Origin: a candidate division WOR-3 bacterium
Lineage (GTDB): Bacteria > Hydrothermota > UBA3073
Length of the DNA stretch: 51,508 nucleotides
Direction of reading: 5' to 3'
Assembly: GCA_034722095.1 (NCBI GenBank)
Contig: JAYENM010000169.1
Location: forward strand, 1-51,508
The notes under the pieces are model-generated. The model was not told the origin of the DNA. It worked only from the letters and a program-made list of their open reading frames with translations, and did not search any database. Both the position numbers and the translations under genes were made by a program. Shown here piece by piece: positions 30,106-47,800 of this stretch. The number at the start of each line of letters is the position of its first letter. Positions within the stretch are counted from its first letter, which is position 1.

Positions 30106-30134
30106 TTGACTTTTAACCTATTTAGTGCTATAAT
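30106..30134 (+). promoter_or_regulatory. sigma70-type promoter of the kinase-EBP gene (TTGACT-N17-TATAAT)
   Basis: TTGACT is at 30106-30111, the spacer is exactly 17 nt, and TATAAT is at 30129-30134. The pattern is the same as at 2633-2661. Confidence 0.55.
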
Positions 30135-30286: not shown

Positions 30287-33200
30287 ATGAGCAATAATCG
30301 TTATAAAATACTTAAGAAAGTCGGTTCAGGTGGAATGGGCATTGTCTACAAAGTTCTCGATACACAAACCAACACACACCTCGCCCTCAAAACTTCCTCC
30401 AGCAAGCATATCAAAAATGAATTTCTGACACTCTCAAAACTTCACCATCCAAATATTGTAAAAGTCTACGACTTCGGAGTTATGGAGTGCAATCCGCCTC
30501 AGGCGGATGTTGTTGCAGATACGACCTTATCACAGCATTCCAAACAATACTTCTTCACTATGGAGTACATTGAGGGTAAAAATTTGTATGACCTGTTTAG
30601 AGATAATCTACCCAAGACCAGAGCTGAGTATCAACTTCTTTACTCCATAATACTCCAGATCTGTGATGCACTCAGGCTCATTCATTTTCACAAACTTATC
30701 CATTGTGATATCAAACCCAGCAATATACTGATACAATTCTCCGAAACTCAGGAACCCAGAACTGTTATAACAGACTTCGGACTTATAGAGAAAGAGGCAG
30801 CCCAAAAACTCAAGGGCACTCTCCAATACATCGCCCCTGAAGTTCTCAAGGGCGAGAAAATCGATCAAGGTGCAGACCTCTTCTCCCTGGGTGTGACCAT
30901 CTATCAGGTACTAACACATCATCTTCCCTTTGCGGGTGGTAATGCTCTCACTCTTATCAAGCAACATACAAAAGATAAAATAAAACCACCAAAGGAATTC
31001 AACCCTGCAGTACCGGGAAGGTTAAACGATTGTACCTTGGATCTTTTGCAACCCAAACCTCGAAGAAAAACTAAGTCCATAGATGAACTTAAAAAATTTA
31101 TCCATCAAATCTCAGGAAAATCTCAGTTAGCCACTGTCTTTACATCCCTACTGATAGGCAGGCAAAAGGAACTTTCCATCCTTAAAACTACCTGGCAGGA
31201 AGTTAAAACTAACAAGGGTAGGGCTATCTTACTATACGGTGAAAATGGAATAGGAAAGACGAGACTCTTGCAGGAGTTTAAGCCCTACGCCCAAACCGAA
31301 GGAGCACTGATAAAGGAATTCGATTCGAGAAGAAACATTCTAAAAACTTTTACTGATATTATTGAGCAAAAACCCCTTGGCGGAAAGGAGCTAAGCCTGT
31401 TTGAGAAAATAACAAACAAACTCCTGAACGAAGCAAAACAATCCCCACTCCTTCTCGTAGTCGAAGACCTTCAGTCCCAGGGAGAGACTGCCCTTAACTT
31501 GATGGAGTATCTTATAAGGTCTATTGGATCTGCTCCAATTCTTTTAATCATCACTTCTTCGGATACAAAACTCATTAGCAAAGATGTGCAATCCATAAAT
31601 TACCTTAACCACATCAATCTTATACCCCTCAACCCACATGATACTACCACACTGGTCAAGTCTATGCTCTTAACAGATAACAAGGTGAAAGACATCGGGA
31701 CTCTAATTCATACCCATACCGAAGGAAATCCCTTCCTCATCACGACATTTACACGAAGCCTGGTAGAAAACAAAATTCTTGAAAGAACCAAAGGAAAGTG
31801 GACTCTATCGGGCGATAAGCTAAAAACCTATCAGGCTCCAAAAGACATCAAAGACTTCATAGCCCCTGCCTTAAGAGGATTAAGTGAGGATGAATTTAAT
31901 CTGTTAAAAATAGGGACTCTCCTCAAAAATTACTTTATCCTTCCTGTTCTAAAGGACATAATCAGCGTAAAAATCCATACTCTCTACAGTCTCCAGAAAA
32001 AAGGCCTTATCATAGAAAAACCTGCTGAAAACTACTCTTTTACCCATCAAATGGTCTCCAATGTGATTGAAAAGAATATACCTGTCAGCGAAAGAGTTTC
32101 ACTTCATAGAAAAATAGCCAGCATACTGGAACATCGGTTTCAGCAAAACCTTGAGAGAATAGCCCCTGACCTCACTTATCACTATTCACAGGCAAATGAA
32201 ACTACCAAAGTATACAAATTTGCTCTCCTGTCTGGAGAAAGGGCAAAAAACACATCGGCAAATACGGAAGCAGCGGAATACTTTGAACTTGCACTATCTC
32301 TTGCCGACAAATTGGGTAGAAAAAGAAAGAAATTCACCCTTTATGAAACCCTCGGTGATCTCTATCGCACTATGAGCAAATATCAGGACGCCCTCATAAA
32401 ATATGAATCCGCTCTTCCTCTTGTAACCGATGATTCCTGTACAAGAATTTACAGAAAAATAGGAATGATATACAGAGACCAGCAAAATTATGACAAGGCA
32501 CTGAATTACTTTCAGAAAGGATTTAAGGTGCCCTCCAAAGATGCATCTCAAAAGGTGCTCCTCCTCAGTGACATTGGATGGGTTCATATGTGCCTCGGAG
32601 ACCTTAACAAATCCCTGTCTTACTCTCAAAAAGCAATCAAAATGGCAGAAGAATACAATGACCAATTTGGCTTGAGTTATACCTATAGCACTCTCGGTAC
32701 ACTCTGCTTCCAGAAAAGCAACTACGAAAAAGCAATGCAATATTACAGAAAAACACTAAAGGTCGCTAAGAAAATTAAGAATCAAGACATCATTGAGTCT
32801 ACCTCATACAACCTTGGACAAATCTCGTGGAAAACAGGAAAACCGAAGGAGGCAGAGAACTTCTACAAAAAGGGCCTAAAAATCCAAGAAAAAAAAGGCA
32901 ATCCTCATATTCTTGCCCGATATTATAACGCCCTTGGAATCCTCGCGCAAGAACAGGGAGATTTTGATAACGCCCTGACACATTATACATCAGCCCTTGA
33001 TATATTCAAAAGAATAGGAAACAAACAAAGAATAGCCACAGTCCACATGGCACTGGGTACTATGTACCAGGAGAGAGGCGACTTAGACAATGCAATTGAT
33101 AACTATAAAGCAGCCCTTTTGATATCTCAGGAGACAAAAGACACGCCTCTAATTGCACGGATATACAATAACCTTGGTAATCTCTACAAGGATACAGGGA

Positions 33201-35365
33201 ATTTAACAAAGGCAATCAAAAACCTTGAAAAAGCCCTCAAAATTGAGAAGCAAGGCTCGGATTGGAGAGATACAGCATCTACCCTGCACAATATAGGAAT
33301 AGTCCGTATGCTCCAGGGCAAGATGGAGGATGCTTCCAAATTCCTTCACCAGAGCTTCCATCTTCACCAGGAACAGAAATCAAAGAAAGGAATGGCAGAG
33401 GTATGTCCAACTTTGGCTGAATATTATTTGCTTACAGGCAACATCACTACTGCCGAAGACTACTGCCTGAAAGGGATTAAACTGTGTGAAGAAATCAATG
33501 ACTACCTATATCTCGGTATTACCCAAAGGGTCCTTGGCACTGTATACTCCCGGAAAGCAGAAATGGATAAGGCGCTCATCTCTTACTCCAAATCCATAGA
33601 GACTCTAAAAAAGTTGAAGACAGAACACGAACTCGCCAAAACCCTCCTTATTGCCGGAGAAGAGGTCTTTTCTAATAGAGGAAAAATAGGTAGAAAATTC
33701 TGGCGAGAAGGGCTTCTTGACCAGACCTTAACAAGACTAAAACAAGCAAAGCAAATATTCAAAAACCTGAATGCAAGTGCAGATTTAAAGAGAGTGAATT
33801 CTCTGATTTCGAAACTTGAAAAATATTCCCCCCTCATCCTTGAACCCATTCCTGGAGAAGACAAAAAACTTAAGACCCTTTACAGAATGAGCCAAATAGT
33901 AAACTCAACAATGGAGATAAATGAGCTGCTTGAAAAAATACTGGACCTCACCATTGAAACTATGGAAGCAGAAAGAGGCTTCATACTACTGAGAGAAGGA
34001 AAAGAACTTATGGTAAAAACCGCCAGAAATATGGATAAACAATCAATTGCTGATATGTCAGACTTTTCAAAAACCATAGTGGAGAATGTAGAAAAGAAAG
34101 GCGAGCTGATAATCACTTCCAATGCCCAGACAGAGCCAAGATTTAAAGATAGGAAGAGTATAGCCAAATTCAAACTCCTTTCAATTCTGTGCGTTCCCTT
34201 TAGAATTAAGGACCATGTCGTTGGTGCCATCTATATTGATGACAGAAGAAAAAGAGATGCCTTTACCTCAGAAGACCTTGCATTCCTTCGAGCCTTTTGT
34301 GATCAGGCTGCCATAGCTCTCGAAAACGCCAAGTTAATAGAAGAACTAAGGACCGCCAACAAACTACTTGAACTCGAAAATATTGATATGCAAGACCAGA
34401 TTACTCATCTAAGAACCGCCGTGGAAGAAAGATATAGCTTTGGTAACCTGATAGGAAAAAGTGAACCAATGCAAAAGGTATACGATGCCCTTGAAAAAAT
34501 CATCAAATATGACTCCTCTGTAATAATTGAGGGTGAAACAGGGACAGGTAAGGAGATTGTTGCCAATATCATCCATTATAACGGACCCAGAAAGGACAGG
34601 AATTTTATCGTTGTAAATTCAAGTGCTATACCAGAGGAACTCCTTGAATCAGAACTATTCGGCTATGTAAAAGGAGCATTCACTGGGGCCACCCACGATA
34701 AGCAGGGACTCTTTGAAATAGCAGACGGTGGAACTATCTTCTTCGACGAAATTGCAGAATTAAACCCAAATCTCCAAGTCAAACTACTAAGGGTTCTTCA
34801 GGATGGTGAACTGCGAAGGGTTGGAGCCACAAAAAGTAAAAAGGTTGATGTAAGAGTGATAGCAGCAACCAACAGAGACTTACAAAGGCAAGTAAAACAG
34901 GGAAAATTCAGAGACGACCTCTACTACAGGTTAAATGTAGTGTCAATCAAGATGCCCCCTCTAAGAGAAAGAAAAGAAGATATCCCAGTTCTTGCAGCTT
35001 ATATCCTTCGCAAATTCAGAAAGAAACTCCACAAGAATGTAACCGGGTTTACACCAGAAGCCCTTTATCTCCTTCAGAACTACCAATGGCCAGGTAATGT
35101 AAGAGAACTCGAGAATGTCATAGAAAGGGCTATTGTTATGGCAGAAGGTAAAAAAATCACCGAGAAAGATTTGCCAAAATCATTAACTCAAGGAGAACCT
35201 GGCGAAGAAAAAGAAACCACCCTTCTCTGTTCCCTTGTCGATATAGAAAAGAGATGTATCAAGACAGCTCTTAAAGCCTCAGGAGGTAACAAGAGAGAGG
35301 CAGTAAAGTTACTTGGTATATCAAGACCAACCCTCGATAGAAAGATGAAAAGATACGGTTTATGA
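30287..35365 (+). CDS. 1692-aa fusion: Ser/Thr protein kinase + STAND/AAA_16 P-loop NTPase + long TPR array + GAF + sigma54-interaction AAA+ domain + Fis-type HTH (bacterial enhancer-binding protein)
   Basis: Kinase motifs are GSGGMGIVYKV, LALKT, HCDIKPSNIL (30701-30724), ITDFG and YIAPEVL. The P-loop is LLYGENGIGKTRLL (Walker A at 31238-31261). TPR_12-like repeats span roughly 32.2-33.7 kb (for example YNNLGNLYKDTGNLTKAIKNLEKALKI). GAF covers about 33.9-34.3 kb. The EBP core has GETGTGKE (34532-34555), ESELFG and an intact GAFTGA (34673-34690). The C-terminal HTH is REAVKLLGISRPTLDRKMKRYGL. Confidence 0.85.
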   Translation: MSNNRYKILKKVGSGGMGIVYKVLDTQTNTHLALKTSSSKHIKNEFLTLSKLHHPNIVKVYDFGVMECNPPQADVVADTTLSQHSKQYFFTMEYIEGKNLYDLFRDNLPKTRAEYQLLYSIILQICDALRLIHFHKLIHCDIKPSNILIQFSETQEPRTVITDFGLIEKEAAQKLKGTLQYIAPEVLKGEKIDQGADLFSLGVTIYQVLTHHLPFAGGNALTLIKQHTKDKIKPPKEFNPAVPGRLNDCTLDLLQPKPRRKTKSIDELKKFIHQISGKSQLATVFTSLLIGRQKELSILKTTWQEVKTNKGRAILLYGENGIGKTRLLQEFKPYAQTEGALIKEFDSRRNILKTFTDIIEQKPLGGKELSLFEKITNKLLNEAKQSPLLLVVEDLQSQGETALNLMEYLIRSIGSAPILLIITSSDTKLISKDVQSINYLNHINLIPLNPHDTTTLVKSMLLTDNKVKDIGTLIHTHTEGNPFLITTFTRSLVENKILERTKGKWTLSGDKLKTYQAPKDIKDFIAPALRGLSEDEFNLLKIGTLLKNYFILPVLKDIISVKIHTLYSLQKKGLIIEKPAENYSFTHQMVSNVIEKNIPVSERVSLHRKIASILEHRFQQNLERIAPDLTYHYSQANETTKVYKFALLSGERAKNTSANTEAAEYFELALSLADKLGRKRKKFTLYETLGDLYRTMSKYQDALIKYESALPLVTDDSCTRIYRKIGMIYRDQQNYDKALNYFQKGFKVPSKDASQKVLLLSDIGWVHMCLGDLNKSLSYSQKAIKMAEEYNDQFGLSYTYSTLGTLCFQKSNYEKAMQYYRKTLKVAKKIKNQDIIESTSYNLGQISWKTGKPKEAENFYKKGLKIQEKKGNPHILARYYNALGILAQEQGDFDNALTHYTSALDIFKRIGNKQRIATVHMALGTMYQERGDLDNAIDNYKAALLISQETKDTPLIARIYNNLGNLYKDTGNLTKAIKNLEKALKIEKQGSDWRDTASTLHNIGIVRMLQGKMEDASKFLHQSFHLHQEQKSKKGMAEVCPTLAEYYLLTGNITTAEDYCLKGIKLCEEINDYLYLGITQRVLGTVYSRKAEMDKALISYSKSIETLKKLKTEHELAKTLLIAGEEVFSNRGKIGRKFWREGLLDQTLTRLKQAKQIFKNLNASADLKRVNSLISKLEKYSPLILEPIPGEDKKLKTLYRMSQIVNSTMEINELLEKILDLTIETMEAERGFILLREGKELMVKTARNMDKQSIADMSDFSKTIVENVEKKGELIITSNAQTEPRFKDRKSIAKFKLLSILCVPFRIKDHVVGAIYIDDRRKRDAFTSEDLAFLRAFCDQAAIALENAKLIEELRTANKLLELENIDMQDQITHLRTAVEERYSFGNLIGKSEPMQKVYDALEKIIKYDSSVIIEGETGTGKEIVANIIHYNGPRKDRNFIVVNSSAIPEELLESELFGYVKGAFTGATHDKQGLFEIADGGTIFFDEIAELNPNLQVKLLRVLQDGELRRVGATKSKKVDVRVIAATNRDLQRQVKQGKFRDDLYYRLNVVSIKMPPLRERKEDIPVLAAYILRKFRKKLHKNVTGFTPEALYLLQNYQWPGNVRELENVIERAIVMAEGKKITEKDLPKSLTQGEPGEEKETTLLCSLVDIEKRCIKTALKASGGNKREAVKLLGISRPTLDRKMKRYGL

Positions 35366-35370
35366 TAAAG

Positions 35371-35387
35371 TGTAACGTTTTGTTACA
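35371..35387. promoter_or_regulatory. candidate enhancer (UAS) palindrome A: TGTAAC-gtttt-GTTACA
   Basis: The extended perfect 9-bp arms are AAGTGTAAC/GTTACACTT (35368-35390), 3 nt after the EBP stop codon. It could double as a weak terminator hairpin because TTTTT follows. Confidence 0.55.
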
Positions 35388-35490
35388 CTTTTTAGAGAGT
35401 TAAGACTAATCCTCCCTTCAGGGAAATTTCTCCCAACTCCTTAAAAAGGCATAACTTGTGAAAATTCGACAAAACTGACGACAAGAGAAA

Positions 35491-35507
35491 TGTAACAAAA
35501 TGTTACA
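35491..35507. promoter_or_regulatory. candidate enhancer (UAS) palindrome B: TGTAAC-aaaat-GTTACA
   Basis: It belongs to a 32-nt unit (GAAATGTAACAAAATGTTACACTTTTTTGAT) that is repeated in tandem. Confidence 0.6.
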
Positions 35508-35522
35508 CTTTTTTGATGGAAA

Positions 35523-35539
35523 TGTAACAAAATGTTACA
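35523..35539. promoter_or_regulatory. candidate enhancer (UAS) palindrome C: TGTAAC-aaaat-GTTACA
   Basis: It is identical to site B and 32 nt (about 3 helical turns) downstream. It lies 103 nt upstream of the sigma54-type promoter. Confidence 0.6.
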
Positions 35540-35625
35540 CTTTTTTGATAACAAAGAATAACACTCTTCTAAAGGGATTTTGTAAGTCCTTACAAATGCA
35601 GCCATTACGCAAGTTCTCGTTCAAT

Positions 35626-35642
35626 CTGACACGCTTTTTGCT
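35626..35642 (+). promoter_or_regulatory. sigma54-type (-24/-12) promoter, CTGACACGCTTTTTGCT
   Basis: It matches TGGCACG-N4-TTGCW at every conserved position and in spacing, except that the second G of the -24 GG is A. The identical 17-mer recurs at 42311-42327. It lies the right distance downstream of palindromes next to an EBP gene. Confidence 0.55.
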
Positions 35643-35684
35643 CCTTATAAATAATGAGTAAATAAACTAAAGGAGGTGAGTAGA

Positions 35685-35834
35685 ATGAGTAAATTTCTAA
35701 AAAAGTTGTGCTTGATGGCAATAGCACTCATCCTTGTCCTATTAACAGCCACTATGGCATTTGGAGGTAACATCCACCCACCAATTGACCCTCGACCACC
35801 CACAGTTTATGGTATTGGCGGTAGTGGCAGATAA
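35685..35834 (+). CDS. 49-aa secreted pre-peptide (not in the ORF track): MSKFLKKLCLMAIALILVLLTATMAFGGNIHPPIDPRPPTVYGIGGSGR
   Basis: I translated it by hand. A consensus SD AGGAGGTG (35671-35678) lies 6 nt before the ATG. The peptide has a Lys-rich n-region, a 15-residue hydrophobic core and an A-x-A-like TMA|FG site, then a Pro/Gly-rich tail of about 23 residues. TAA is at 35832-35834 and a strong hairpin follows immediately. Confidence 0.65.
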   Translation: MSKFLKKLCLMAIALILVLLTATMAFGGNIHPPIDPRPPTVYGIGGSGR

Positions 35835-35839
35835 ATCAT

Positions 35840-35875
35840 AAGGGAGGGTGCAGAACCCCTTCTTTACCCTCCCTT
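35840..35875 (+). terminator. intrinsic-terminator-like hairpin after the peptide gene
   Basis: The perfect 10-bp stem AAGGGAGGGT (35840-35849) pairs with ACCCTCCCTT (35866-35875) around a 16-nt loop. TGTATCTTT follows, which is a modest T-tract. Confidence 0.55.
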
Positions 35876-36207
35876 TGTATCTTTGCGTTATACGACACAG
35901 ACAGGCAATTTTTGACAGTTAAGCCAGTGCTATCTTGGGGTATATACGATTTGCCCGATTCATATTTGAAATTGTCTTTTGTGGTCAAAGTGATATTTTT
36001 TATCATTTGTGGTAGTGTCAAATAGAATATGAAAGAATATGACAAACCACAGTCATACGACCCGTCCTTACGGATCCGTATGGATATGGGAGGTCACAGA
36101 GTAAATTTAATTCTCTGTGCTCTCCAAAAGAGTTTCCTCTGAAAGATAAAACGGAAAAGATAATTGCCTGTGCTATTGAAGTCCATTCAACTTTAGGTCC
36201 AGGTCTG

Positions 36208-36597
36208 TTGGAGAGTGTTTATGAGGAAGCGTTGGCGTATGAATTTGAGTTGAGGGGAATAAATTTTGAAAGGCAAAAAGAGATTATGCTTGAGTATAAA
36301 GGGAAAAGCATAGGTCCGCATCGGATAGATTTTTTAATAGAAGAACAGGTGATATTAGAGATAAAGGCAACAGAGGGAATGAAGAAGATATTTGAGGCAC
36401 AGGTTTTAACATATATGAAAGCAATAAAGAAAAAAGTGGGACTACTTATAAATTTCAATGTAGAAAGGTTGAAAGACGGGATAAAAAGATTGGTCTTATC
36501 CGTGCGGATCCGTATGAATAAGAGGTCACAGAGGGGAGGGAAAAGAATCTTTTGTAATTCCTTAATACTGAACATTCTCTGTGTTCTCTGTGGTTAA
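36208..36597 (+). CDS. GxxExxY-family protein (PD-(D/E)XK-like), lacking a canonical start and with a repeat-encoded tail
   Basis: The family hallmark GPGLLESVYEEALAYEFELRGINFERQKEI...HRIDFLIEEQVILEIKA is present. Homology (KTEKIIACAIEVHSTL) extends upstream of the track's TTG start to about 36139. There is no ATG, GTG or TTG in frame after the stop at 36040-36042, only CTG. The last 30 or so codons are translated from the flanking repeat. Confidence 0.6.
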   Translation: MESVYEEALAYEFELRGINFERQKEIMLEYKGKSIGPHRIDFLIEEQVILEIKATEGMKKIFEAQVLTYMKAIKKKVGLLINFNVERLKDGIKRLVLSVRIRMNKRSQRGGKRIFCNSLILNILCVLCG

Positions 36598-36634
36598 ATT
36601 TTTGACAATACTTCATTTGTAACTGGGGGATATT

Positions 36635-36988
36635 ATGTATCAGGAAAATAAAATAGAAGCACTCCTCGCCCTTAAAGAAAGTGGAAGAATTGTGAAAATG
36701 CTGAAGTTCTATCTGAGGCCAAAGGCGGTTGAGGTCGGGAGCCGTTCAACAACATTTGAGCAAACCTTTGACAAAAGTAGTTATATGCTTACCCTGATGA
36801 CTGGGAAAGAAACACTTACCTTTGAACGACAGTTAGGACAAGGCACTCCATGGATATCCATAAGTTCACCCAAAGAAATGGCCCTTTCAGACAGAAAACT
36901 ACCCAATTTTCTGAATTCCATTATCTCTGAAGACGACATGAGAAAGCAGATACAAGAACACATAAACTCCTTTATGAAAGGGAGGTAA
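36635..36988 (+). CDS. hypothetical protein (117 aa), no recognisable motifs
   Basis: It is an intact ORF with a GGGGGA SD, in the same orientation as the downstream sensor gene. No family is recognised. Confidence 0.45.
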   Translation: MYQENKIEALLALKESGRIVKMLKFYLRPKAVEVGSRSTTFEQTFDKSSYMLTLMTGKETLTFERQLGQGTPWISISSPKEMALSDRKLPNFLNSIISEDDMRKQIQEHINSFMKGR

Positions 36989-37041: not shown

Positions 37042-38256
37042 ATGGAGAAAAATTTAAACATATCGGTTTCTTCCTTTTGTGAAGGAAAATCCGCAAAGAT
37101 ATTGACCAACATCAACGAGAGTAAGCACACAGAGGACGAGTTACATAAAGTTAACCGTGCACTTAAGCTCCTCAGTGAATGCACCCAGGCCGTGTTGCGT
37201 GCTGTGGAGGAATTGGAAGTGCTGGATGAGATATGCCATATCCCCGGTGAATGCAATCAGGCAGTGCTGTGTGCCGTGGAGGAATCGGAGCTACTGCATG
37301 AGGTATGCCGAACCATCGTGGAAGTCGGCGGATATCGAGTGGCATGGGTTAGTTCAACCGAAGAGGATAAAGATAAGACCGTGCGACCTGTGCTGTTGGC
37401 GGGATACGGGAAGGATTACCTTGACATAATAGACATCTCAAGGGTAGATACTGAAAGTGGTAGTGGTCCCACCCGCAGAGTTGCACTTCCTTTGATTGCT
37501 CACGGTCAGACCTTAGGTGTACTTAATATCTATGCCGCCGAGCCAGATGCCTTTGACCCACAAGAAGTGAGTCTGCTGACAGAACTGGCAAATTACCTGG
37601 CGTATGGCATCTCTTCCCTTAGAGATTGCTCTGAACTTAAGCAGGCTGAGGAGACACTGATAAAATCCCACCAGGTATACGAAAAACTCGTTAATACCAT
37701 TGATGGTATCGTATGGGAAGCAGATGCACAAACCCTCCAATTTTATTTTGTCAGCAAGCAAGCTGAACGACTTCTCGGCTATAGTACCCGATGTTGGCTT
37801 AAAGAAGCTGCATTCTTCGAGAACCATCTCCACCCGGATGATCGGGAACGGGTCATTGCCCTTTTGAAGAAAACAGCCGCAGAAAAGAAAACTCACGAGT
37901 TTGAATTCCGAATGTTAGCAGATGATGGACGCCCTGTGTGGCTAAGAAATACTTTCACCGTGTTTGTTAAGGACGATAAACCCATTAGGCTATGCGGAGT
38001 GATGATGAACATCACGGAACGCAAAAGGTTGAAAGAGATCATAAGAAAAGCCTATGAGCAGATAGAGCAACATATTGAGCAGTTTGCTATTTTAGTTGAG
38101 GGAACAAAAAATCCTCTGGCGGTAATAGATGGCTTAGCCAGATTAAAAGGCGATGAAACATCAAAAAAGATAAACAAGCAGGTTGAAAGGATCGAGAAAA
38201 TATTAAAACGGATTGATAGTGAATGCCTCGACACGAGAAGGTTAGAGATTTTTTGA
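37042..38256 (+). CDS. GAF-PAS sensor protein without a recognisable catalytic output domain
   Basis: GAF is marked by LLHEVCRTIVEVGGYRVAWVS...LPLIAHGQTLGVLNIYAAEPDAFDPQEVSLLTELANYLAYGI. PAS is marked by VNTIDGIVWEADAQTLQFYFVSKQAERLLGY...HPDDRERV...WLRNTFTVF...GVMMNITERKR. The C-terminal coiled coil has ILVEGTKNPLAVI where a HisKA H-box would sit, with no His, and there is no HATPase domain. Confidence 0.7.
   Translation: MEKNLNISVSSFCEGKSAKILTNINESKHTEDELHKVNRALKLLSECTQAVLRAVEELEVLDEICHIPGECNQAVLCAVEESELLHEVCRTIVEVGGYRVAWVSSTEEDKDKTVRPVLLAGYGKDYLDIIDISRVDTESGSGPTRRVALPLIAHGQTLGVLNIYAAEPDAFDPQEVSLLTELANYLAYGISSLRDCSELKQAEETLIKSHQVYEKLVNTIDGIVWEADAQTLQFYFVSKQAERLLGYSTRCWLKEAAFFENHLHPDDRERVIALLKKTAAEKKTHEFEFRMLADDGRPVWLRNTFTVFVKDDKPIRLCGVMMNITERKRLKEIIRKAYEQIEQHIEQFAILVEGTKNPLAVIDGLARLKGDETSKKINKQVERIEKILKRIDSECLDTRRLEIF
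37175..37309 (+). repeat. in-frame 72-nt tandem duplication inside the sensor gene
   Basis: GTGAATGCACCCAGGCCGTGTTGCGTGCTGTGGAGGAATTGGAAGTGCTGGATGAGATATGCC (from 37175) aligns with GTGAATGCAATCAGGCAGTGCTGTGTGCCGTGGAGGAATCGGAGCTACTGCATGAGGTATGCC (from 37247). In protein terms this is ECTQAVLRAVEELEVLDEIC / ECNQAVLCAVEESELLHEVC. Confidence 0.85.
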
Positions 38257-40493: not shown

Positions 40494-40643
40494 AAAAGGT
40501 TTAAAAAACTCGTAGATGGTGAAGTTAAGGCAGGTTATTATGATGTGAGGCTGGATGGCAGAAGTCTCCCATCAGGCATCTATTTCGCAAGGCTTAAAAC
40601 TGATAGTTATGAGGAGACGAAGAAGATAGTATTGATAAAATGA
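40494..40643 (+). pseudogene. orphan relic of a T9SS C-terminal sorting domain
   Basis: The open frame has no start codon: KRFKKLVDGEVKAGYYDVRLDGRSLPSGIYFARLKTDSYEETKKIVLIK*. It is colinear with the C25 gene tail KMLVDDRLEAGYHIIKLDSENLPSGIYFARLVTNNYEATKKLVLMK. Its stop overlaps the ATG of the next gene. Confidence 0.75.
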
Positions 40644-41608
40644 AGAGAATTCTTATAGGTCTCATAGTTATACTGCCCTGTGTGGTCTACTCATCCGATG
40701 ATGCGAGTTTTTTGATAGTAACCCCGGGGGGAAGAGCTGCGGGGCTATCATCGGCATTTATGGCAATCTCGGACGATATCTACGCATCTTACTACAATGA
40801 CGCCGGATTAGGATTCCAGAACGGCTTGTCTTTTGGTGGTACTGGTGGATGGTGCCCATATTCCCTTATTTTTGATGGAGAGGAAAGGTATGATTTCTGG
40901 GGAGTCTCCTTCCCTCTCACAATAATCGGCGGAAGAATAGGCATTAGCGCTATTTATAACCATAAAGATGGCGGCACAGATATCTCGCACAAGCTCTCCT
41001 ATGGGAGAAGGATTGGCAGAGACCTTTCCATTGGCCTTGGGGTGAGACTGCTTTCTATCAGTCCTATGTTCCCTATGTGGGATATAAGGATGGATAATTA
41101 CTATTCTGCGGTTGATATTTCAATGCTATATAGGAAAGAAAACTTAAGTATCGGTTGCGCCATCCAAAATATAGGACCTTCTATCACATACAGTTATACC
41201 TTATTTGAAGATACTACATTTGAAGGAAGATTTGAAGCACCTTTGCCCTCTCTTTTACGAATGGGTCTCGGTTATAAATCCCCAAATCTTGGAGACCACA
41301 GCATTCTGGGGACAGCGGACATCGTTAGAAATTTTACAGAGTCGATCAATGATGAGAATTTCTTCTATTTTTCTTTGGGGATTGAATACTCCTATAAAGA
41401 TTTCCTATTTCTTCGTGGTGGCTGCCTATTGGATATAAATAAAAATACAGAAAGGACTGGTTTTAGCTATGGTATAGGGATCAAATTGGAAGAAGGATTT
41501 TACATCGACTTAGGGGTTGAGCCAGAATATCCGCTCCAAACTAATAGGGTTAAACTCTCCTTCAGGGGGCAATATCCACCAAACTCATGGACACATACGA
41601 AAAGATAA
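40640..41608 (+). CDS. second, divergent PorV/PorQ-like outer-membrane beta-barrel protein
   Basis: After the signal peptide comes FLIVTPGGRAAGLSSAFMAISDDIYASYYNDAGLGF. This parallels the PorV/PorQ N-terminal motif seen in the 20037-21047 product. Confidence 0.5.
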   Translation: MKRILIGLIVILPCVVYSSDDASFLIVTPGGRAAGLSSAFMAISDDIYASYYNDAGLGFQNGLSFGGTGGWCPYSLIFDGEERYDFWGVSFPLTIIGGRIGISAIYNHKDGGTDISHKLSYGRRIGRDLSIGLGVRLLSISPMFPMWDIRMDNYYSAVDISMLYRKENLSIGCAIQNIGPSITYSYTLFEDTTFEGRFEAPLPSLLRMGLGYKSPNLGDHSILGTADIVRNFTESINDENFFYFSLGIEYSYKDFLFLRGGCLLDINKNTERTGFSYGIGIKLEEGFYIDLGVEPEYPLQTNRVKLSFRGQYPPNSWTHTKR

Positions 41609-42055
41609 AGAAATTGCCAATAATGAGGTAGAACTGAAATAAAATATTACCTCGCCTAGCTATCAGGATGTCTGTTGAATATGGGGACGGTTCTTTTTTT
41701 CTTGACACCTTGCATTTATGGTAGCACTATTGCATAGTGCTCCATTTATTGATAACATTTTGTTCTTATCTATGGATCTGATAGATTTATAGCTGATATG
41801 GAGAGAAAATACGAAGTCAAGAAATTCCCTGCCCCGTGGAGTTAGTTTTGCTACTCCACAGGGCAGGCCAAAGAAGATATGAAAAACAGTCCGAAAAAGA
41901 GAACCGTTCCCATTACAGTCCACACCCATTACCCATTACATTCAAAATAGGGGTAACTCCCCCAAGTGGAGCCTCTAAAACCTTTATGGACATTGGGCTT
42001 AGAAATATTAAACAGTCATAACTTGCGAAAATTTGATAAACCAGTAGTTTAAAAG

Positions 42056-42072
42056 TGTAAAATTTCTTTACA
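42056..42072. promoter_or_regulatory. variant enhancer palindrome A': TGTAAA-atttc-TTTACA
   Basis: The extended arms are AAGTGTAAA/TTTACACTT (42053-42075). Its relative position is the same as site A of the first module. Confidence 0.5.
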
Positions 42073-42175
42073 CTTTTCGGGGTGTTATGGCTAACCTTTC
42101 CTTCAAGGGGATTTCTCCCAAGTCCTTAAAAAATCAAAACTTGTAGAAATTCGACAAAATTGGCAGTCGGAGGAG

Positions 42176-42192
42176 TGTAAAGTTTCTTTACA
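42176..42192. promoter_or_regulatory. variant enhancer palindrome B': TGTAAA-gtttc-TTTACA
   Basis: It lies 120 nt after A', exactly as B lies after A in the first module. Confidence 0.55.
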
Positions 42193-42207
42193 CTTCCATC
42201 AAGAAAA

Positions 42208-42224
42208 TGTAAAGATTCTTTACC
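42208..42224. promoter_or_regulatory. variant enhancer palindrome C': TGTAAA-gattc-TTTACC
   Basis: It lies 32 nt after B' and 103 nt before the promoter. These are the same spacings as in the first module. Confidence 0.5.
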
Positions 42225-42310
42225 ATTTTTAGGTCGCCATGACTGCCCCCTTTAGAGGAATTTTTTTCAAATCCCTGTCAGTTCACGCATTACGTAGATT
42301 CTCATTCTTT

Positions 42311-42327
42311 CTGACACGCTTTTTGCT
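42311..42327 (+). promoter_or_regulatory. second sigma54-type promoter, CTGACACGCTTTTTGCT
   Basis: The 17-mer is identical to 35626-35642. Confidence 0.55.
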
Positions 42328-42391
42328 TTTATAATATAGTGAAAGGTTGATTTCTGATTATGGGAATAAGGGTCCGAGGGAAGTGTTTTAT

Positions 42392-42517
42392 ATGAAATGT
42401 GTCCCTTACTTCCAACACAGCGAAGAAGATAATACCTTTACGCCCTCAATCCTGTTAATACATATGACTGGGAGTATTTTTATTTTCTTCTATGCGGGGT
42501 TTACAAGGTACGTCTAG
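42392..42517 (+). CDS. candidate 41-codon micro-ORF in the conserved leader (MKCVPYFQHSEEDNTFTPSILLIHMTGSIFIFFYAGFTRYV)
   Basis: It is hand-translated and not in the track. It is homologous to 38377-38529, sharing PSI(F/L)LI...G(G/S)IFIFF. Coding status is unproven. Confidence 0.3.
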   Translation: MKCVPYFQHSEEDNTFTPSILLIHMTGSIFIFFYAGFTRYV

Positions 42518-42520
42518 AAT

Positions 42521-42550
42521 TGCCCTGCGTGTCTGGTGATGCGCAGGGCA
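42521..42550 (+). other. 9-bp GC-rich hairpin between the micro-ORF and the BNR gene (possible attenuator/terminator)
   Basis: TGCCCTGCG (42521-42529) pairs with CGCAGGGCA (42542-42550). It starts 4 nt after the micro-ORF stop and is followed by TGATGGGTTGTTTAT. Confidence 0.4.
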
Positions 42551-42589
42551 TGATGGGTTGTTTATGAAGTAGGCATCCTGGAGGTTTTT

Positions 42590-44869
42590 ATGTATCTTTT
42601 TATTATAATTCAGTTATTCCTTTCACCAGTCTGGGAGACACACGGACCCTATGGAGGAGAGACTATATGCATTGCCATAGACCCAAATAAAACTCTCTGT
42701 ATGTATGCGGGGACAGGGAATCCTGAATTAATAACAACGAATGGAGACGGTGTTTATGTAAGCACAGACGGTGGAGAAAACTGGAACCATACCTCACTCG
42801 GCTCTACTTTTGTTTGGGATATTGCAGTTGATTCTCATGGAGAAGTGTATGCTGCTACTCGTGGGTATGGAATTTTCAAGAGCACAGACAGAGGCACCAC
42901 CTGGAATTCAATAAATAACGGACTGTCATGTCTATATATATCTGATATTGCTATTGAGCCTCTCAATGACAGCGTTGTCTATGTAGGGACCGGAGACAAG
43001 TTTTATGGTAGTGTGTGGGATTGGTCAATGGATGGTATATACAAATCTACAGATAGAGGAGAAACCTGGAGTAGACTGGGACTGGACGGCACGACTGTAT
43101 CTTCCATTGTGGTGCATCCTGTGGCGCCAGAAACTCTCTATGCAGCGGTATATGATGTACCATGGGATAATACATCAAGTGAAGTAGGGATTTACAAGTC
43201 CTGCGATTACGGGGTTACCTGGATGTACAAAGCAGATATAGCTGCGAATGATTTAGTTATAGATCTGGTAAATCCCAATACAATTTACGCTGCCCCCAAG
43301 TGGGATTGGGATCACTTCTGGAAAAGCACGGATGGTGGAGAAACCTGGACATACTGTTATATGGGTATTTTTACGAATGAAATACGGACAATAGCGATTG
43401 AGCCATTCAACGACAGCATTATCTATATGGGTTGTGCCTCATATCCCACAATGGATGAAAAATTCGGTGGTATTTATAAATCTATAGATGCAGGGGATAC
43501 ATGGAGCGAAGTGATGGTAGGTATGCCAGACGAGCCTGTACATTCTATTGTTATTGGTATTGACAATCCCGATAAGGTCTATGCTACATGCAGTGGTCCT
43601 GGGGTGTATAAAAGTGTTGACAAGGGAGAAACCTGGGCATGGTCGTCTAATGGTATGAGGCTGCAGATAGTGACAGATTTGAGTTCGGCAAACGAAGACA
43701 TCTTTGCTGCGACAAGGTCCGGCGTATATAAAAGAGAGAGCTCAAGTGAAGTGTGGCATAATCGGAGCTCTGGGATAAGACAGGTTAGGACTATGTGCAT
43801 CGCTGCCGCGCCGTCTGCACCTGATACTATTTACCTCGGCACATTTGTCGGTGCGGGACCAACGCCATCTTATAGAAGTTTTGATGGTGGGGAGACTTGG
43901 ACCGGGTGTGCAGGAGGAGGAATTTGTCATATCCAGGTTAATCCTCTCAATCCCAGTGTATACTATGCTGTAGAGAAATTCAATTTTAGAAAAGTTTACA
44001 AATCAACTGATGCAGGCTCCACTGTGACCACTACCTTGGATACCACTAGTCCCGGATGTGTAGCAATAGATCCTGTTGATACAAACATAGTCTATGTAGG
44101 TGGCGGTTCTGGCAGCGCATGGGTTCTCAAAACTGTTGAGGGGGGCACAAGTTGGATAAGTATCTCCCAAGGGTTGGATTCAGGATTTGTCTGCGATATA
44201 GAGTTAGATAATTTCAACGAGGACATCCTCTATGCCGTTGTGAATGCCGATCTCTTTGGATGGGAAGGTAATGGAAAACTCTTCAGGTATAACGGAGATT
44301 TATGGGAAAGAGTAGGGGTTGATCTCCCAGAATTGCCATTCTCCTCCCTTAAGGTGGATCCAGTACTTCAGAGTGTTCTGTATATTGGCACCTATGGAGG
44401 AGGTGTATACAGAAGCATTGATGGAGGGATAGTGTGGAATGAGTTGAACGAGGGCCTCGGGAACCTCTTTGTAAACTGTATCATGTTAGACCCTCTCGAC
44501 CACACGAAGATATATGCAGGAACTAATGCCGGTGTATATTCAATCACCTCTCCCCCCGGTATTGAGGAAGAGAGTGCTATTACTCTCTCTCTTCTCACGG
44601 TCTCTCCAAATCCCTTCAGCACAACTACCGCTATCACGCTATCAGACTATCAGGCTAACGCTTCACGCTTTACGCCTTACACCTTACGCATCTACGACCT
44701 CACAGGCCGCCTCGTCAAACGATTTACGATTTTCGATTCACGGCTTACGAGTATAGTCTGGAATGGAAGAGATGACTCTGGCAATTCTTTACCTCCAGGG
44801 GTCTATTTCGCAAGACTTGAATCTGGAAAGACTGAATATAAAGCTGAGAAGATTGTAAAATTGAGGTAA
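42590..44869 (+). CDS. BNR/Asp-box (sortilin/Ycf48-like) beta-propeller protein with T9SS sorting domain
   Basis: At least 11 Asp-boxes are present: STDGGENW, STDRGTTW, STDRGETW, SCDYGVTW, STDGGETW, SIDAGDTW, SVDKGETW, SFDGGETW, STDAGSTV, TVEGGTSW and SIDGGIVW. The tail is VSPNPFSTTTAI...IYDLTGRLVKRF...GVYFARLESG...KIVKLR. The N-terminus MYLFIIIQLFLSP lacks a basic n-region. Confidence 0.8.
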   Translation: MYLFIIIQLFLSPVWETHGPYGGETICIAIDPNKTLCMYAGTGNPELITTNGDGVYVSTDGGENWNHTSLGSTFVWDIAVDSHGEVYAATRGYGIFKSTDRGTTWNSINNGLSCLYISDIAIEPLNDSVVYVGTGDKFYGSVWDWSMDGIYKSTDRGETWSRLGLDGTTVSSIVVHPVAPETLYAAVYDVPWDNTSSEVGIYKSCDYGVTWMYKADIAANDLVIDLVNPNTIYAAPKWDWDHFWKSTDGGETWTYCYMGIFTNEIRTIAIEPFNDSIIYMGCASYPTMDEKFGGIYKSIDAGDTWSEVMVGMPDEPVHSIVIGIDNPDKVYATCSGPGVYKSVDKGETWAWSSNGMRLQIVTDLSSANEDIFAATRSGVYKRESSSEVWHNRSSGIRQVRTMCIAAAPSAPDTIYLGTFVGAGPTPSYRSFDGGETWTGCAGGGICHIQVNPLNPSVYYAVEKFNFRKVYKSTDAGSTVTTTLDTTSPGCVAIDPVDTNIVYVGGGSGSAWVLKTVEGGTSWISISQGLDSGFVCDIELDNFNEDILYAVVNADLFGWEGNGKLFRYNGDLWERVGVDLPELPFSSLKVDPVLQSVLYIGTYGGGVYRSIDGGIVWNELNEGLGNLFVNCIMLDPLDHTKIYAGTNAGVYSITSPPGIEEESAITLSLLTVSPNPFSTTTAITLSDYQANASRFTPYTLRIYDLTGRLVKRFTIFDSRLTSIVWNGRDDSGNSLPPGVYFARLESGKTEYKAEKIVKLR

Positions 44870-44890
44870 ACAAAATCAGAGGAGGTTTAT

Positions 44891-47800
44891 ATGCTTAAGA
44901 AAATAGCAAGTATTATACTGGCGATAGGTTTTGCTCATATCGTCTTTGCCGATGTAACTCATAATGTCTATTTCTCATCATCGGATTTGACCTTCAGACA
45001 GGAGAAGGGATACGACATCGTGGAGTTAAAGGGATGCAACCTGATGGATGTGGTTGGCGAGCCCATGCTTTCTGTAAGATATATGAACCTCATTATCCCA
45101 GCGGGAAATAAGGTATCCAGAATAGAGTTTCCATTAGCCAATTCACAAAACATAGGAACCTACAACATCTATCCAGCGCAGCCACCAATCCCTGTAAGTA
45201 GTAGTGAACCGCCTGAATGGGTGGAACCAGACCCTCTTGTGTATAGTTCTGACGAACCCTATCCAGGCAAACTCGCAGAGGTTGTCCATGAGGGATATTT
45301 TAACGGGAATAAGATTGTGATGCTTGCGGTCTATCCACTCCAATGGATGCCAAGCACTGGAGAGCTCGTGTTGTATGACCACATACAGTTAAGACTCGTG
45401 TTGGAATCATCATCCGAAACTCCAGTCTATCCACAGATTATGACCGAGCAGAGTTACAAACTCTATAAATCTGCGTTGAGTTCGTTGATTGCAAATGACA
45501 AAGACAAGAGTGCCTATGGATATGAACCTACTGTTGTGACTCCACAGTCTGCTCCTGCTGAGTTTATACTACCTGCATCTTCTACAGAGATAATAGAGTA
45601 TATGATAATTACCCCCAATGCACTCACCTCATCTTTTAACTCTTTTGTGGAATGGTTATGGAAGAAGGGGATAAGAGCAGGGATTATCACTGTAGAGGAT
45701 ATACTTGCTTCATATCCTGGGGTTGACGATGCCCAGAAGGTGAAGAGATGCATCTGGAAGTGGTGGCAATTTAACTCTCTCACTTATGTGCTTCTCGCTG
45801 GAGATGATGGTATTGTACCTTTTAGATACGGTTGGGCCAGGAATAATCTAAATTTTCCACCACAGACTCGCGTAGATTCATTTTATATCATTCCTACTGA
45901 TCTTTACTTCTCGGATCTTTCTGGCAACTGGGATGTTGATGGAGACAATCGCTGGGGTGAGCCAGAAGATAGTATTGATATATATCCTGAGGTATATGTA
46001 GGGAGAGTGTTGGTACGGAACATGGAAGAAGTTAACAACTGGTTACAGCGGGTGTTGAATTACGAGCGAAATCCAGGAAATGCGTCTCTTATGAAAGATG
46101 TTATGTGGAGTTATCAAGAATATGACCCAGATACATCACATATGGGAGGAAATTTCATCAACTTTCAATTTCTTGTTAATCAGGCTATAGCGCATTTTCC
46201 TGAAGACTATACCCATTATCATTATTATGCTATGAGCTCCACTGAGAATCTATCTGGTCTGAATGAGGGATACGGGCAGGTATGTCTTTACGCCCACGGT
46301 TGGCCAGATAGATGGACAACGAGAACCTGGCCTGTTAGTTGGGTGTTTTCTTGGCCATCCGCTGGTGGCGGAGACCTGTACCATCTCTCTAATCCAAACA
46401 AGTATGGTGTTGTGTATTCAATTAGTTGTATGAATGCAATGTTTGATAAGATCTTGGAGGATGTTTGGCATTGCGAGGATACTACAATTGCAGATGGATT
46501 TACAGATGCTTATACAAATGGAGGCGAAGCCGCCTTTCTTGGAAACAGCAGATACGGATGGTCCCATACCTCTCCTTCTCTTCACCGGTGTTTTCTGGAT
46601 GTTCTATTCAATTCAAGCGACCTGTCTTCCAAGGTTGGATATGCTGAGGGAATATCCAAAACTCTTGGTGGGTCTAGGTATGTTTGGTATTCTCACAACC
46701 TGTTTGGCTCTCCGGAGACTCCTGTCTGGACTGATGTGCCACCACCTTTGACAGCAAGCCATCCATCCCGATTATATGTGGATCCAGAGATTACTCTGCT
46801 CCTCACTGTAACGGTTACATCTAATGGAAGTCCTGTAGAGGATGCTCTTGTTTGCCTATACAAGCCTTCAGATGATCCAGTAATTTACAAAAGAGGCTAT
46901 ACCGATGCAAATGGTGAGGTCACTTTTGATCTCCGTATTCGAAACACGGGATATCTATATGTTACTGCGACCAAACACAATTTCAAACCTTACGAAGGTA
47001 GAATTCTGTGCACCTACCCTCCCTGTCCCTTTCTCTATACCTATAATGGTTCAGAATTCATAGAGGATAACAATATCCTTTCAGGTTCTGGAACTGTAGA
47101 AGATTGGTATAAGCTGAGGGAGAAACCCCTTAAAGATGAAAATAGATATAGGTTACAGATAAAGGAGAATAACGATGAGCATTCATTCTTTGACAGGGTG
47201 AGACTTTATGCTATTGACCATCCAGACTCTGTTGAAGTATTCGTGACACAGGATGGAGAGATTGTCTCCGTTTCTATGATGTCCGCTTCTCAATCAGTTA
47301 TTGGGGAGGATGGAGTTGATTATACTACAGTGCTTCTTGACAGAGATAGTGTATGGGTTGAGGCAAATGAGGTTGAAAAGATCACCGCTGAATTTGGAGG
47401 AACTAATGGAGGAGACTACGTCATACTCGCACCACCAGGGCCGAAGCCAAGACTTATGGTTGAAGAAGCAAATGGTTCAAGTTTTGAAACTGTCGGTTCC
47501 ATTCGTGGAAGAGAGAACCCATCCTATGAGGTGCTTCCTCTTACAGTTTCATCTCCCGAGGAGGTGAGCCTGAGATTCACATTCACTGATGTCTCCCAGA
47601 GACTTGACTATATACGGTTTGGGAAGAGAAACAATGCTCCATATCATATAAAACCCTGTCCACTTGTGGCTGCTACCCACTCTGACATTGGTTCTGTCAA
47701 GCAGAAACTACTTATTGATGATGAGAACTATGCAGAACTTCTTCCCTGTGATACGATAACACTTGAGTTTGCAGTTGTTGATATAGAACCTGGATGGGTG

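Follow-up and report, generated by a model that had tools for sequence, protein, structure and literature searches.

A predicted sigma54-dependent cassette coupling a TPR-containing enhancer-binding protein to a small exported peptide in WOR-3 bacteria

The window analysed here is a complete 51,508-bp contig from a metagenome-assembled genome (MAG) with the clade label WOR-3 / 'Candidatus Stahlbacteria'-related. It carries a gene for a 1692-aa regulator with a tetratricopeptide repeat (TPR) array and, directly downstream on the same strand, a 49-codon gene for a predicted exported proline-rich peptide. Comparison with related loci suggests that the two genes probably form part of a regulatory cassette that depends on sigma54 and is confined to WOR-3/Stahlbacteria and certain related lineages of the Fibrobacteres-Chlorobi-Bacteroidetes (FCB) group, with the peptide best guessed to be an exported cue. 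The sequence evidence supports well that the regulator, an enhancer-binding protein (EBP) hereafter called the activator, acts at the cassette promoters, because the genes are adjacent, the site geometry is fixed, the helix-turn-helix (HTH) domain varies with the sites and its recognition helix covaries with them. A preliminary description of this DNA had placed five elements in a row, namely the regulator gene, three palindromes, a -24/-12 promoter, a small gene led by a strong Shine-Dalgarno (SD) sequence and a terminator. All five are present, far above chance. To our knowledge, essentially no regulation has been characterised in WOR-3/Stahlbacteria, Edwardsbacteria or Zixibacteria. The features of the cassette, with the basis of each assignment, are as follows.

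30106-30134, + strand: sigma70-like promoter, TTGACT-17-TATAAT with an extended TG (consensus scan, 11 of 12 matches, a pattern match only)
30287-35365, + strand: enhancer-binding protein gene, 1692 aa (Pfam domains, intact motifs, orthologues at 51-91% identity)
35371-35387, + strand: distal activator site (predicted), palindrome TGTAACGTTTTGTTACA, centre at about -274 from the predicted start
35491-35507, + strand: activator site 2 (predicted), TGTAACAAAATGTTACA, centre at about -154
35523-35539, + strand: activator site 3 (predicted), TGTAACAAAATGTTACA, centre at about -122
35627-35642, + strand: sigma54-type -24/-12 promoter TGACACGCTTTTTGCT, TGACAC-N5-TTGCT, predicted start near 35653
35671-35676, + strand: Shine-Dalgarno AGGAGG, 8 nt 5' of the ATG (sequence)
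35685-35834, + strand: 49-codon gene for the exported proline-rich peptide (predicted), an ATG open reading frame (ORF) encoding MSKFLKKLCLMAIALILVLLTATMAFGGNIHPPIDPRPPTVYGIGGSGR
35840-35875, + strand: intrinsic-terminator-like hairpin followed by U-rich UUUGUAUCUUUG (-24.7 kcal/mol, z = -4.8)

Architecture of the activator

The N-terminal part of the activator matches the Pfam families Pkinase (residues 6-242) and AAA_16 (289-421), followed by the TPR array at ~650-1150 (TPR_12, TPR_1 and TPR_MalT, the last at 3e-29). The C-terminal half comprises GAF (1211-1345), Sigma54_activat (PF00158, 1388-1554, 5e-72), AAA_lid_14 and HTH_8 (1650-1690). The AAA+ domain contains the Walker A motif GETGTGKE at 1416 and, at 1463, the GAFTGA motif that bacterial EBPs require, and both are conserved in the relatives. 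The succession of an AAA_16 P-loop NTPase and a TPR arm is that of a STAND NTPase regulator, and the STAND Walker A and B motifs (GENGIGKT and VVED) are intact here and kept in the relatives. The K/HxD/DFG motifs of the kinase domain are likewise intact and kept, and by these motifs the kinase looks active. The activator is a cytoplasmic, soluble protein.

The best NCBIfam match of the GAF-AAA+-Fis HTH half is NifA. The preceding kinase-STAND-TPR(-GAF) portion is a general input module, which among the relatives is also seen with GGDEF, HisKA/HATPase and cyclase outputs. PDB sequence matches of the TPR region (the best 60 of 96) are to consensus TPR proteins, LGN/Pins, KLC, OGT and PH0952, with 6mfv among the matches and no RRNPP receptor among these 60. 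PADLOC matched only the kinase, sigma54 AAA+ and generic TPR portions, and the N-terminal module of the activator matches TIGR03903 weakly (165 against a 706-bit cut-off), with a further match to NF038230 that is also far below cut-off. The exact protein sequence is not on record in the databases. A literature search found no description of the activator architecture or of the cassette, which bears out the earlier statement that no system of this composition had been described.

Control region

The intergenic region from the activator to the peptide gene measures ~320 bp (a 319-bp gap) and begins 5 nt past the activator stop codon. All three palindromes in it are perfect TGTAAC-N5-GTTACA. Sites 2 and 3 lie 32 bp apart, three helical turns, and are embedded in a perfect 31-nt direct repeat. 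With up to two mismatches allowed, TGTAAC-N5-GTTACA occurs eight times in the window against 1.57 expected, a number reached in 0 of 100 shuffles. Palindromes that match the C-terminal HTH stand upstream of the promoter, as at other EBP targets. The palindrome scan of the window found no GTAA-N7-TTAC palindrome upstream of the activator gene itself.

The promoter TGACACGCTTTTTGCT has a single mismatch to TGGCAC-N5-TTGC. Its -12 TTGCT and its spacing match exactly, and its -24 element reads TGACAC, with A in place of the second G of GG. The form TG[A/T]CA[CT]-N5-TTGCT is found in all WOR-3-clade copies (both blocks of the window; L001, L003, L006-L008 and L010-L012), and the distant homologues L017, L031, L091 and L092 carry the -24 GG. 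The GA/GT element may represent a lineage-specific variant of the sigma54 promoter. It could reflect a lineage-specific change in recognition by RpoN or a weak promoter specific to this regulon.

The peptide and its family

The product of the small gene is annotated by NCBI as 'hypothetical protein U9R01_04860'. Export and cleavage were judged by inspection of the n-, h- and c-regions with the -3/-1 rule of thumb, not by SignalP. By inspection, the peptide has a signal peptide at ~1-27/28 with the n-region MSKFLKK and a hydrophobic core of 13-15 residues, and a mature part of ~22 aa with the core PP-x-DP-R-PPT and a GG-rich C-terminus. The sequence named as its synthetic version is GNIHPPIDPRPPTVYGIGGSGR.

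The peptide family consists of 17 distinct sequences of 43-61 aa with one common plan. The N-terminus reads M-[SN]-K-[LF]-L-K-K, followed by a hydrophobic core of 13-15 residues and S-T-A-T-x-A-F-[GA]. After the cleavage region come 3-6 variable residues, P-P-[IVT]-[DGI]-P-[RKEQD]-P-P-[TG], 2-5 further residues and GG(G), optionally with R, K or H. The core shared by the whole family is P-x-P-x(1-3)-P-x-PP-[TGS], and the predicted mature lengths are 18-35 residues. Small residues occupy positions -3/-1 in 17 of 17 peptides (A-F-G, T-F-A, V-F-A or I-Y-A; general pattern A/T/V-x-G/A). The PRPPGV core is triplicated in L012 and P0140. Between the window and L001, the peptide genes have 10 nonsynonymous and 5 synonymous codon differences, clustered directly after the predicted cleavage site, and the activators are 91% identical.

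The family is small, with 10 clusters among 5.8 billion proteins. A search of 1.84 billion representatives gave nine matches at E <= 0.001, including one to an unrelated protein of low complexity. Both strands of 173 sequences (1.84 Mb) were scanned blindly for ORFs of 30-130 aa that are SD-led, signal-like and rich in Pro/Gly, which yielded peptide genes of this family and nothing else, indicating specificity. The scan found no such ORF beside the ~150 kinase-STAND-TPR relatives without a sigma54 output.

Three other assignments of the peptide were considered and rejected. None of the 17 peptides has the G|FxxxE or G|F(T/S)LxE prepilin motif of a type IV pilin. A lipoprotein is not indicated, the sole Cys of the peptide lying within the hydrophobic core and not being conserved, and the leader is hydrophobic rather than of the LSxxELxxIxGG type of double-glycine leaders. 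Hairpins rich in GC, analogous to that of the window, follow the peptide gene in L001, L003, L006 and L008 (five of the five loci read, including the window).

Conservation of the cassette

The DNA around activator relatives and from GTDB species representatives was collected, and the downstream regions were scored by script. Full-length relatives of the activator share 91, 90, 83, 75, 72, 68, 55, 54 and 51% identity with it, and a further large set of proteins of the same architecture at ~30% identity comes from WOR-3, Zixibacteria, TA06 and others. The conservation counts take in ten distinct orthologues with readable downstream DNA. Palindromes, promoter, SD and peptide ORF all follow the activator gene in eight of them (the window, L001, L003, L010, L011, L012, L006 and L008), where the peptide ORF has 45-60 codons. 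In these eight, GTAA-N7-TTAC starts 135-137 and 103-105 nt 5' of the promoter. A third copy at 255 is frequent: among 13 distinct regulatory blocks that were scored, 7 have a GTAA core starting 255 nt 5' of the promoter.

The expectation that a small ORF and a palindrome/promoter block would accompany the orthologues therefore holds for these eight and breaks down at two loci. L007/L016 (51%) has an identical control region, but it drives a 261-aa protein with a tail of the type IX secretion system (T9SS), whose mature N-terminus ADEPFDPEPRP resembles the peptide core. In L004/L014 the unit is lost. Downstream of the first target gene, a third gene of the cassette is conserved, which in the window is separated from the peptide gene by an insertion.

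36011-36612, + strand: 602-bp insertion with a PDDEXK_3 nuclease-family ORF (36208-36597), flanked by TCATTTGT
36635-36988, + strand: gene for a 117-aa cytoplasmic protein, third cassette gene, conserved after the first target gene

The 117-aa gene lies 3' of the first target gene in every readable orthologous locus except L004/L014, and in L007/L016 that target is the 261-aa T9SS protein, not the peptide. The pattern suggests that gains and losses of the 117-aa gene go hand in hand with those of the peptide gene.

More distant loci keep parts of this arrangement. The Edwardsbacteria homologue L017, 29% identical in the STAND-TPR region and of the complete same architecture, is followed by GTAAC-type palindromes, a canonical TGGCAT-N5-TTGCT and a 43-aa peptide MKRLILLGLFVVGLFLGLTSTIYAATDPQPWPPPPSPSISGGG, with an ORF that by eye is transposase-like inserted between palindromes and promoter. 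In L031 (8090-8800), a Deferribacteres-labelled MAG whose record is partly masked by N, a distant activator of the same architecture precedes three TGCAC-N7/8-GTGCA palindromes, TGGTAT-N5-TTGCA and a signal-peptide protein of tandem GIAQGPRDIPVG repeats. The Zixibacteria-type loci L091 and L092 have canonical sigma54 promoters and ORFs of 68 and 74 aa whose products start with a signal peptide, are rich in Gly/Pro in the middle and finish in a hydrophobic tail with FVL at the C-terminus. There (L091 9387-10973, L092 9375-11153) a ~250-aa Sigma54_activat/AAA_lid protein without HTH follows, and an HTH_11-WYL/WCX protein gene is also 3', a different but recurrent cassette. T9SS cargo genes are next downstream of the activators of L089 and L090. 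A metagenome scan with the STAND-TPR alignment gave relatives of at most 24% identity, of which one, L145, has the sigma54 domain; no small ORF was found with it.

The HTH is the most variable domain of the activator and varies in step with the sites (GTAAC-N5-GTTAC versus GTAAAG-N3-CTTTAC). The recognition helix reads ISRPTLDRK where the sites are GTAA..TTAC and VHRNTLHRK where they are TGCAC..GTGCA. This agrees with the preliminary description, in which the palindromes were said to fit the activator HTH and the receptor was proposed to activate the small gene. That the activator drives this gene appears well founded, because palindromes, promoter, SD and ORF are kept downstream of orthologous activators and the helix covaries with the palindrome type.

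A second regulatory block and the regulon

The control region of ~310 bp is duplicated at 42025-42340, and the second copy precedes genes for T9SS cargo.

42056-42224, + strand: second set of three predicted activator sites of the TGTAAA-N5-TTTACA type, at 42056, 42176 and 42208
42312-42327, + strand: second sigma54-type promoter, identical TGACACGCTTTTTGCT (sequence scan)
42590-48142, + strand: genes for a BNR/Sortilin-repeat T9SS cargo protein of 759 aa and a Peptidase_C25 (gingipain-family) T9SS cargo protein of 1083 aa, 3' of the second promoter

The sites of the second block have the same 120- and 32-bp spacings as those of the first, and its SD is degenerate; across loci, AAGGAGG is kept in peptide-type blocks and lost in second-type blocks. 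A second copy or remnant of the peptide gene after the second promoter was looked for and none was found. Second blocks are also present in L011 and, divergently, 5' of response-regulator genes in L006. Because the second block precedes T9SS cargo genes, the peptide gene is to be seen as one regulon member and not the sole target. The activator would thus have at least one target promoter besides that of the peptide gene and would control a small regulon, of which the peptide gene is the member most constantly linked to it. The T9SS context that had been proposed for the host holds, with Por_Secre_tail cargo and PorV-like genes in the window.

The second block also bears on the first palindrome. 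That this palindrome is simply the terminator of the activator gene was considered and rejected: in the second block a site stands at the same -255 position, remote from any stop codon. The BNR gene is separated from the second promoter by an untranslated leader of 260 nt (42328-42589). It contains a GC-rich inverted repeat, GCCCTGCG...CGCAGGGC, at ~42521-42549, with no Rfam match.

Comparison with known systems

The RRNPP systems have a five-point signature of a propeptide of 10-100 aa, Sec export (SignalP-positive), a receptor of 250-500 aa, TPRs and direct adjacency (PMC10075063). Their reference intergenic range is -50 to 191 bp, and propeptides with internal duplications are known (PMC10075063). 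The peptide of 49 aa (43-61 aa in the family) falls within the propeptide range, and the two genes are direct neighbours on the same strand. However, the activator with its 1692 aa is three to seven times too large for a receptor of 250-500 aa, its TPRs are of the consensus/STAND type, with no RRNPP receptor among the best 60 of their 96 PDB matches, and the 319-bp gap exceeds the reference range and holds the enhancer and the promoter. No peptide importer (Opp) was found in the window or in the conserved neighbourhoods. The preliminary description had read the locus as having the defining RRNPP layout; membership is rejected on account of receptor length, receptor similarity and intergenic distance. 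The argument from adjacency is itself weakened, because exported proline-rich ORFs occur only beside members with a sigma54 output, so that a cis-regulatory link already explains the adjacency.

What the cassette does share with RRNPP(A) systems (Rap-Phr, NprR-NprX, PlcR-PapR, PrgX and AimR-AimP) is a cytoplasmic TPR regulator adjoining a gene of 40-60 codons for a propeptide that by inspection is of the Sec type, a propeptide that diverges fast and has internal duplications, and secreted proteins in the regulon. It differs from them in its output, a sigma54 AAA+ activator instead of a sigma70-type HTH or a phosphatase, and in its host, a diderm of the FCB group and not Firmicutes or their phages and plasmids. 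Among quorum-sensing systems, those that use peptides and cytoplasmic receptors are considered a speciality of Firmicutes.

A resemblance also exists to classical EBPs (NtrC-glnAp2, NifA-nifH, PspF-pspA and PilR-pilA), with which the cassette shares the NifA-like GAF-AAA+(GAFTGA)-Fis HTH half, paired palindromes ~32 bp apart at 100-150 bp 5' of a predicted -24/-12 promoter, and an adjacent target. The spacing of the NtrC sites at glnAp2 is comparable to that of sites 2 and 3, and pilA is likewise a short, highly expressed target gene adjoining its activator gene. In comparison with these proteins, the activator has ~1200 extra N-terminal residues (kinase, STAND and TPR), the -24 element is GA/GT and not GG, and the target is a 49-codon proline-rich gene without G|FxxxE. 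The sensor half resembles MalT, M. tuberculosis PknK and archaeal PH0952 in having AAA_16 followed by a MalT-like TPR sensor, and shares with PknK a Ser/Thr kinase at the N-terminus. A sigma54 activator takes the place of the LuxR-type HTH or cyclase that is the output of such proteins and of TIGR03903 proteins. The cassette can be classed as an EBP with an adjacent sigma54 target, unusual in its sensor architecture, its -24 element and its product.

Possible functions of the peptide

With its sensor modules satisfied, the activator would oligomerise on sites 2 and 3 and open the sigma54 promoter, giving a burst of short, terminator-stabilised peptide mRNA. Partial read-through would reach the 117-aa gene, and the secreted-protein regulon would be induced in parallel. 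The best guess is that the peptide serves as an exported signalling cue, periplasmic or extracellular, made alongside secreted 'public goods'. Feedback of the peptide on the activator's own TPR array is plausible by analogy; the assignment of that array as the peptide receptor is pure inference.

Several observations weigh against this interpretation. Sigma54 promoters nearly always carry GG at -24, and here the element is GA/GT, conserved nonetheless; a check for rpoN was limited to the 51.5-kb contig, which contains none. The cleavage call follows a rule of thumb, which leaves an uncleaved membrane anchor possible, and the peptide has no evident route over the outer membrane because it has no T9SS C-terminal domain. 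In this genome only, the insertion at 36011-36612 parts the peptide gene from the 117-aa gene. A different matter is the L004/L014 locus (68%, GCA_030592575.1), in which the activator is intact and the promoter, the peptide gene and the 117-aa gene are gone. At L004 10300-10360 (identical in L014) the sequence reads TTCAATC-CTTTTTGTTAC, with a 7-bp deletion of the -24 element and GC to GT at -12, and a gene for a 326-aa signal-peptide protein sits where the two genes are absent.

RRNPP-like autoinduction would require the matured peptide to re-enter the cell, bind the concave face of the TPR array and switch on the STAND and AAA+ modules, raising its own transcription and that of the secreted enzymes. 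We consider this possible yet doubtful, and we hold the same view of the broader proposal of peptide cell-cell signalling in diderm FCB bacteria, in which the proline-rich peptide (core PxPPT) would be sensed via the TPR arm or indirectly, with autoinduction through sigma54 and T9SS enzymes turned on. Genes for a TPR protein and a predicted Sec-type propeptide adjoin each other across phylum-level lineages, the 43-61 aa of the propeptide lie within the RRNPP range, and the peptide flanks diverge fast around a conserved core (for window and L001, 10 nonsynonymous against 5 synonymous codon changes). Internally duplicated cores (PRPPGV three times in L012/P0140, and the tandem-repeat precursor of L031) recall RRNPP propeptides, and the co-regulated genes encode secreted proteins. 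Consensus TPR grooves bind extended peptides, as do the related TPRs of LGN, KLC and OGT. However, receptor size, receptor homology and taxon all speak against autoinduction, as do the diderm host, the failure to find an importer in the window or conserved neighbourhoods, and an outer-membrane route that was not identified. Many other outputs are combined with the kinase-STAND-TPR module, and no such peptide was found beside the ~150 relatives that are not EBPs. The L004/L014 activator stayed intact after the peptide was lost, its TPR region being as conserved as the kinase (66 versus 67%), and the TPR region of the activator is in general not markedly more divergent than the NTPase domain.

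It is somewhat unlikely that the peptide is instead an effector or structural output (envelope, matrix, adhesive or antimicrobial), with the 117-aa protein as a helper or immunity factor. The very strong SD, dedicated promoter and terminator suggest bulk production, the PRPPGV and GIAQGPRDIPVG expansions resemble structural low-complexity proteins, at L007 the place of the peptide is taken by a surface or secreted T9SS protein under the same control region, and secreted enzymes are co-regulated. However, ~20 mature residues are short for a structural role, the net charge is near neutral, unlike that of cationic proline-rich antimicrobial peptides, the conserved cassette holds no exporter or immunity ABC system, and the family is tiny and lineage-restricted. 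A signal peptide that stays uncleaved would make the product a small single-pass inner-membrane protein with a periplasmic proline-rich tail that modulates a membrane sensor or transporter, like MgrB. The 2-3 Lys of the n-region and the hydrophobic core of 13-15 residues would suit such an anchor, and signalling genes are frequent downstream (GAF-PAS; HisKA kinases in L007 and L008); this role appears improbable given the conserved c-region with small -3/-1 residues, the pattern of a signal peptidase I site, the solubility of the activator and a neighbouring GAF-PAS protein in which no membrane segment was found. Most improbable is a precursor of a ribosomally synthesised and post-translationally modified peptide (RiPP), or a conflict or defence module in which the STAND sensor, on detecting an invader, switches on a membrane peptide that is toxic, and the 117-aa protein serves as modifier or antidote. 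Towards it point the weak, below-cut-off matches to TIGR03903 ('TOMM system kinase/cyclase fusion protein') and NF038230 (sigma54 regulator, peptide system), the frequency of STAND-TPR proteins in defence, and the AbiEii, HsdS and M78-HTH genes beside the distant L091 locus; TIGR03903 proteins are encoded beside genes for small (TOMM) peptide precursors. A RiPP is argued against because modifying enzymes are absent: neither the window nor the orthologous loci contain radical SAM, YcaO, LanM or PCAT, no orthologous cassette has an ABC exporter, and the one partner that is conserved, the 117-aa protein, matched no known family or fold. The defence reading is unsupported because the PADLOC matches are at the level of domains, with no STAND defence model among them; no Avs-type anti-phage system is indicated, the window neighbours being housekeeping or glycan-use genes. 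The locus is moreover syntenic and vertically inherited over orthologues of 51-91% identity, and its co-regulated genes are for secreted enzymes.

The cassette is a compact unit, consisting of a single activator with defined DNA sites, a single promoter and a peptide of 22 residues; it links an elaborate sensor to T9SS cargo and a tiny product. Should the peptide act as a signal, receptor-plus-propeptide logic would extend to diderms and to sigma54, as a convergent and mechanistically distinct counterpart of RRNPP outside Firmicutes. If it is not, the locus would still provide a recognition sequence for a widespread, unstudied class of ~1700-aa EBPs, a natural family of sigma54 promoters in which the canonical GG at -24 is missing, and a new family of tiny secreted peptides.

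The 117-aa protein and the genomic neighbourhood

Among 5.8 billion proteins, the 117-aa family forms 13 clusters, all of whose named members come from WOR-3. No Pfam, NCBIfam, PADLOC, PHROG or PDB sequence match was found. The AlphaFold model (pLDDT 74.6) has a four-strand meander and two helices, without a Foldseek match at E <= 0.001. The TCATTTGT on both sides of the insertion before this gene looks like a target-site duplication, and PDDEXK_3 is a Cas4-like nuclease fold. The insertion is absent in the otherwise collinear L001, L010 and L012 and looks like a small mobile element outside the system.

Downstream of the cassette, 37042-38256 encodes a 404-aa cytoplasmic GAF-PAS protein that is conserved at this place in L001 and L003. 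Its C-terminus FAILVEGTKNPL is like a HisKA dimerisation helix without the phospho-accepting His. Rfam and tRNA scans of the window gave no matches.

Upstream, a 22-kb glycan-utilisation island (8100-30092) separates a ROK gene from the activator gene; in L001/L002 the distance from the end of the ROK gene to the activator gene is ~600 bp. The island holds genes for a DUF3160 protein, two glucoamylase-like T9SS proteins, a GH94 phosphorylase and a sugar ABC transporter, and also a PorV-like gene, a TonB-dependent receptor and LacI. The DUF3160/T9SS-tailed protein is encoded in two pieces by ORFs that overlap in different frames (8154-9755 and 9662-10588) and cover positions 5-398 and 443-632 of the profile; the split could be due to a frameshift, to decay into a pseudogene or to an error in the assembly. 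Two outer-membrane genes of the PorV/PorQ family are present in the window, one in the glycan island (20037-21047, - strand) and one between the two regulatory blocks (40640-41608, + strand).

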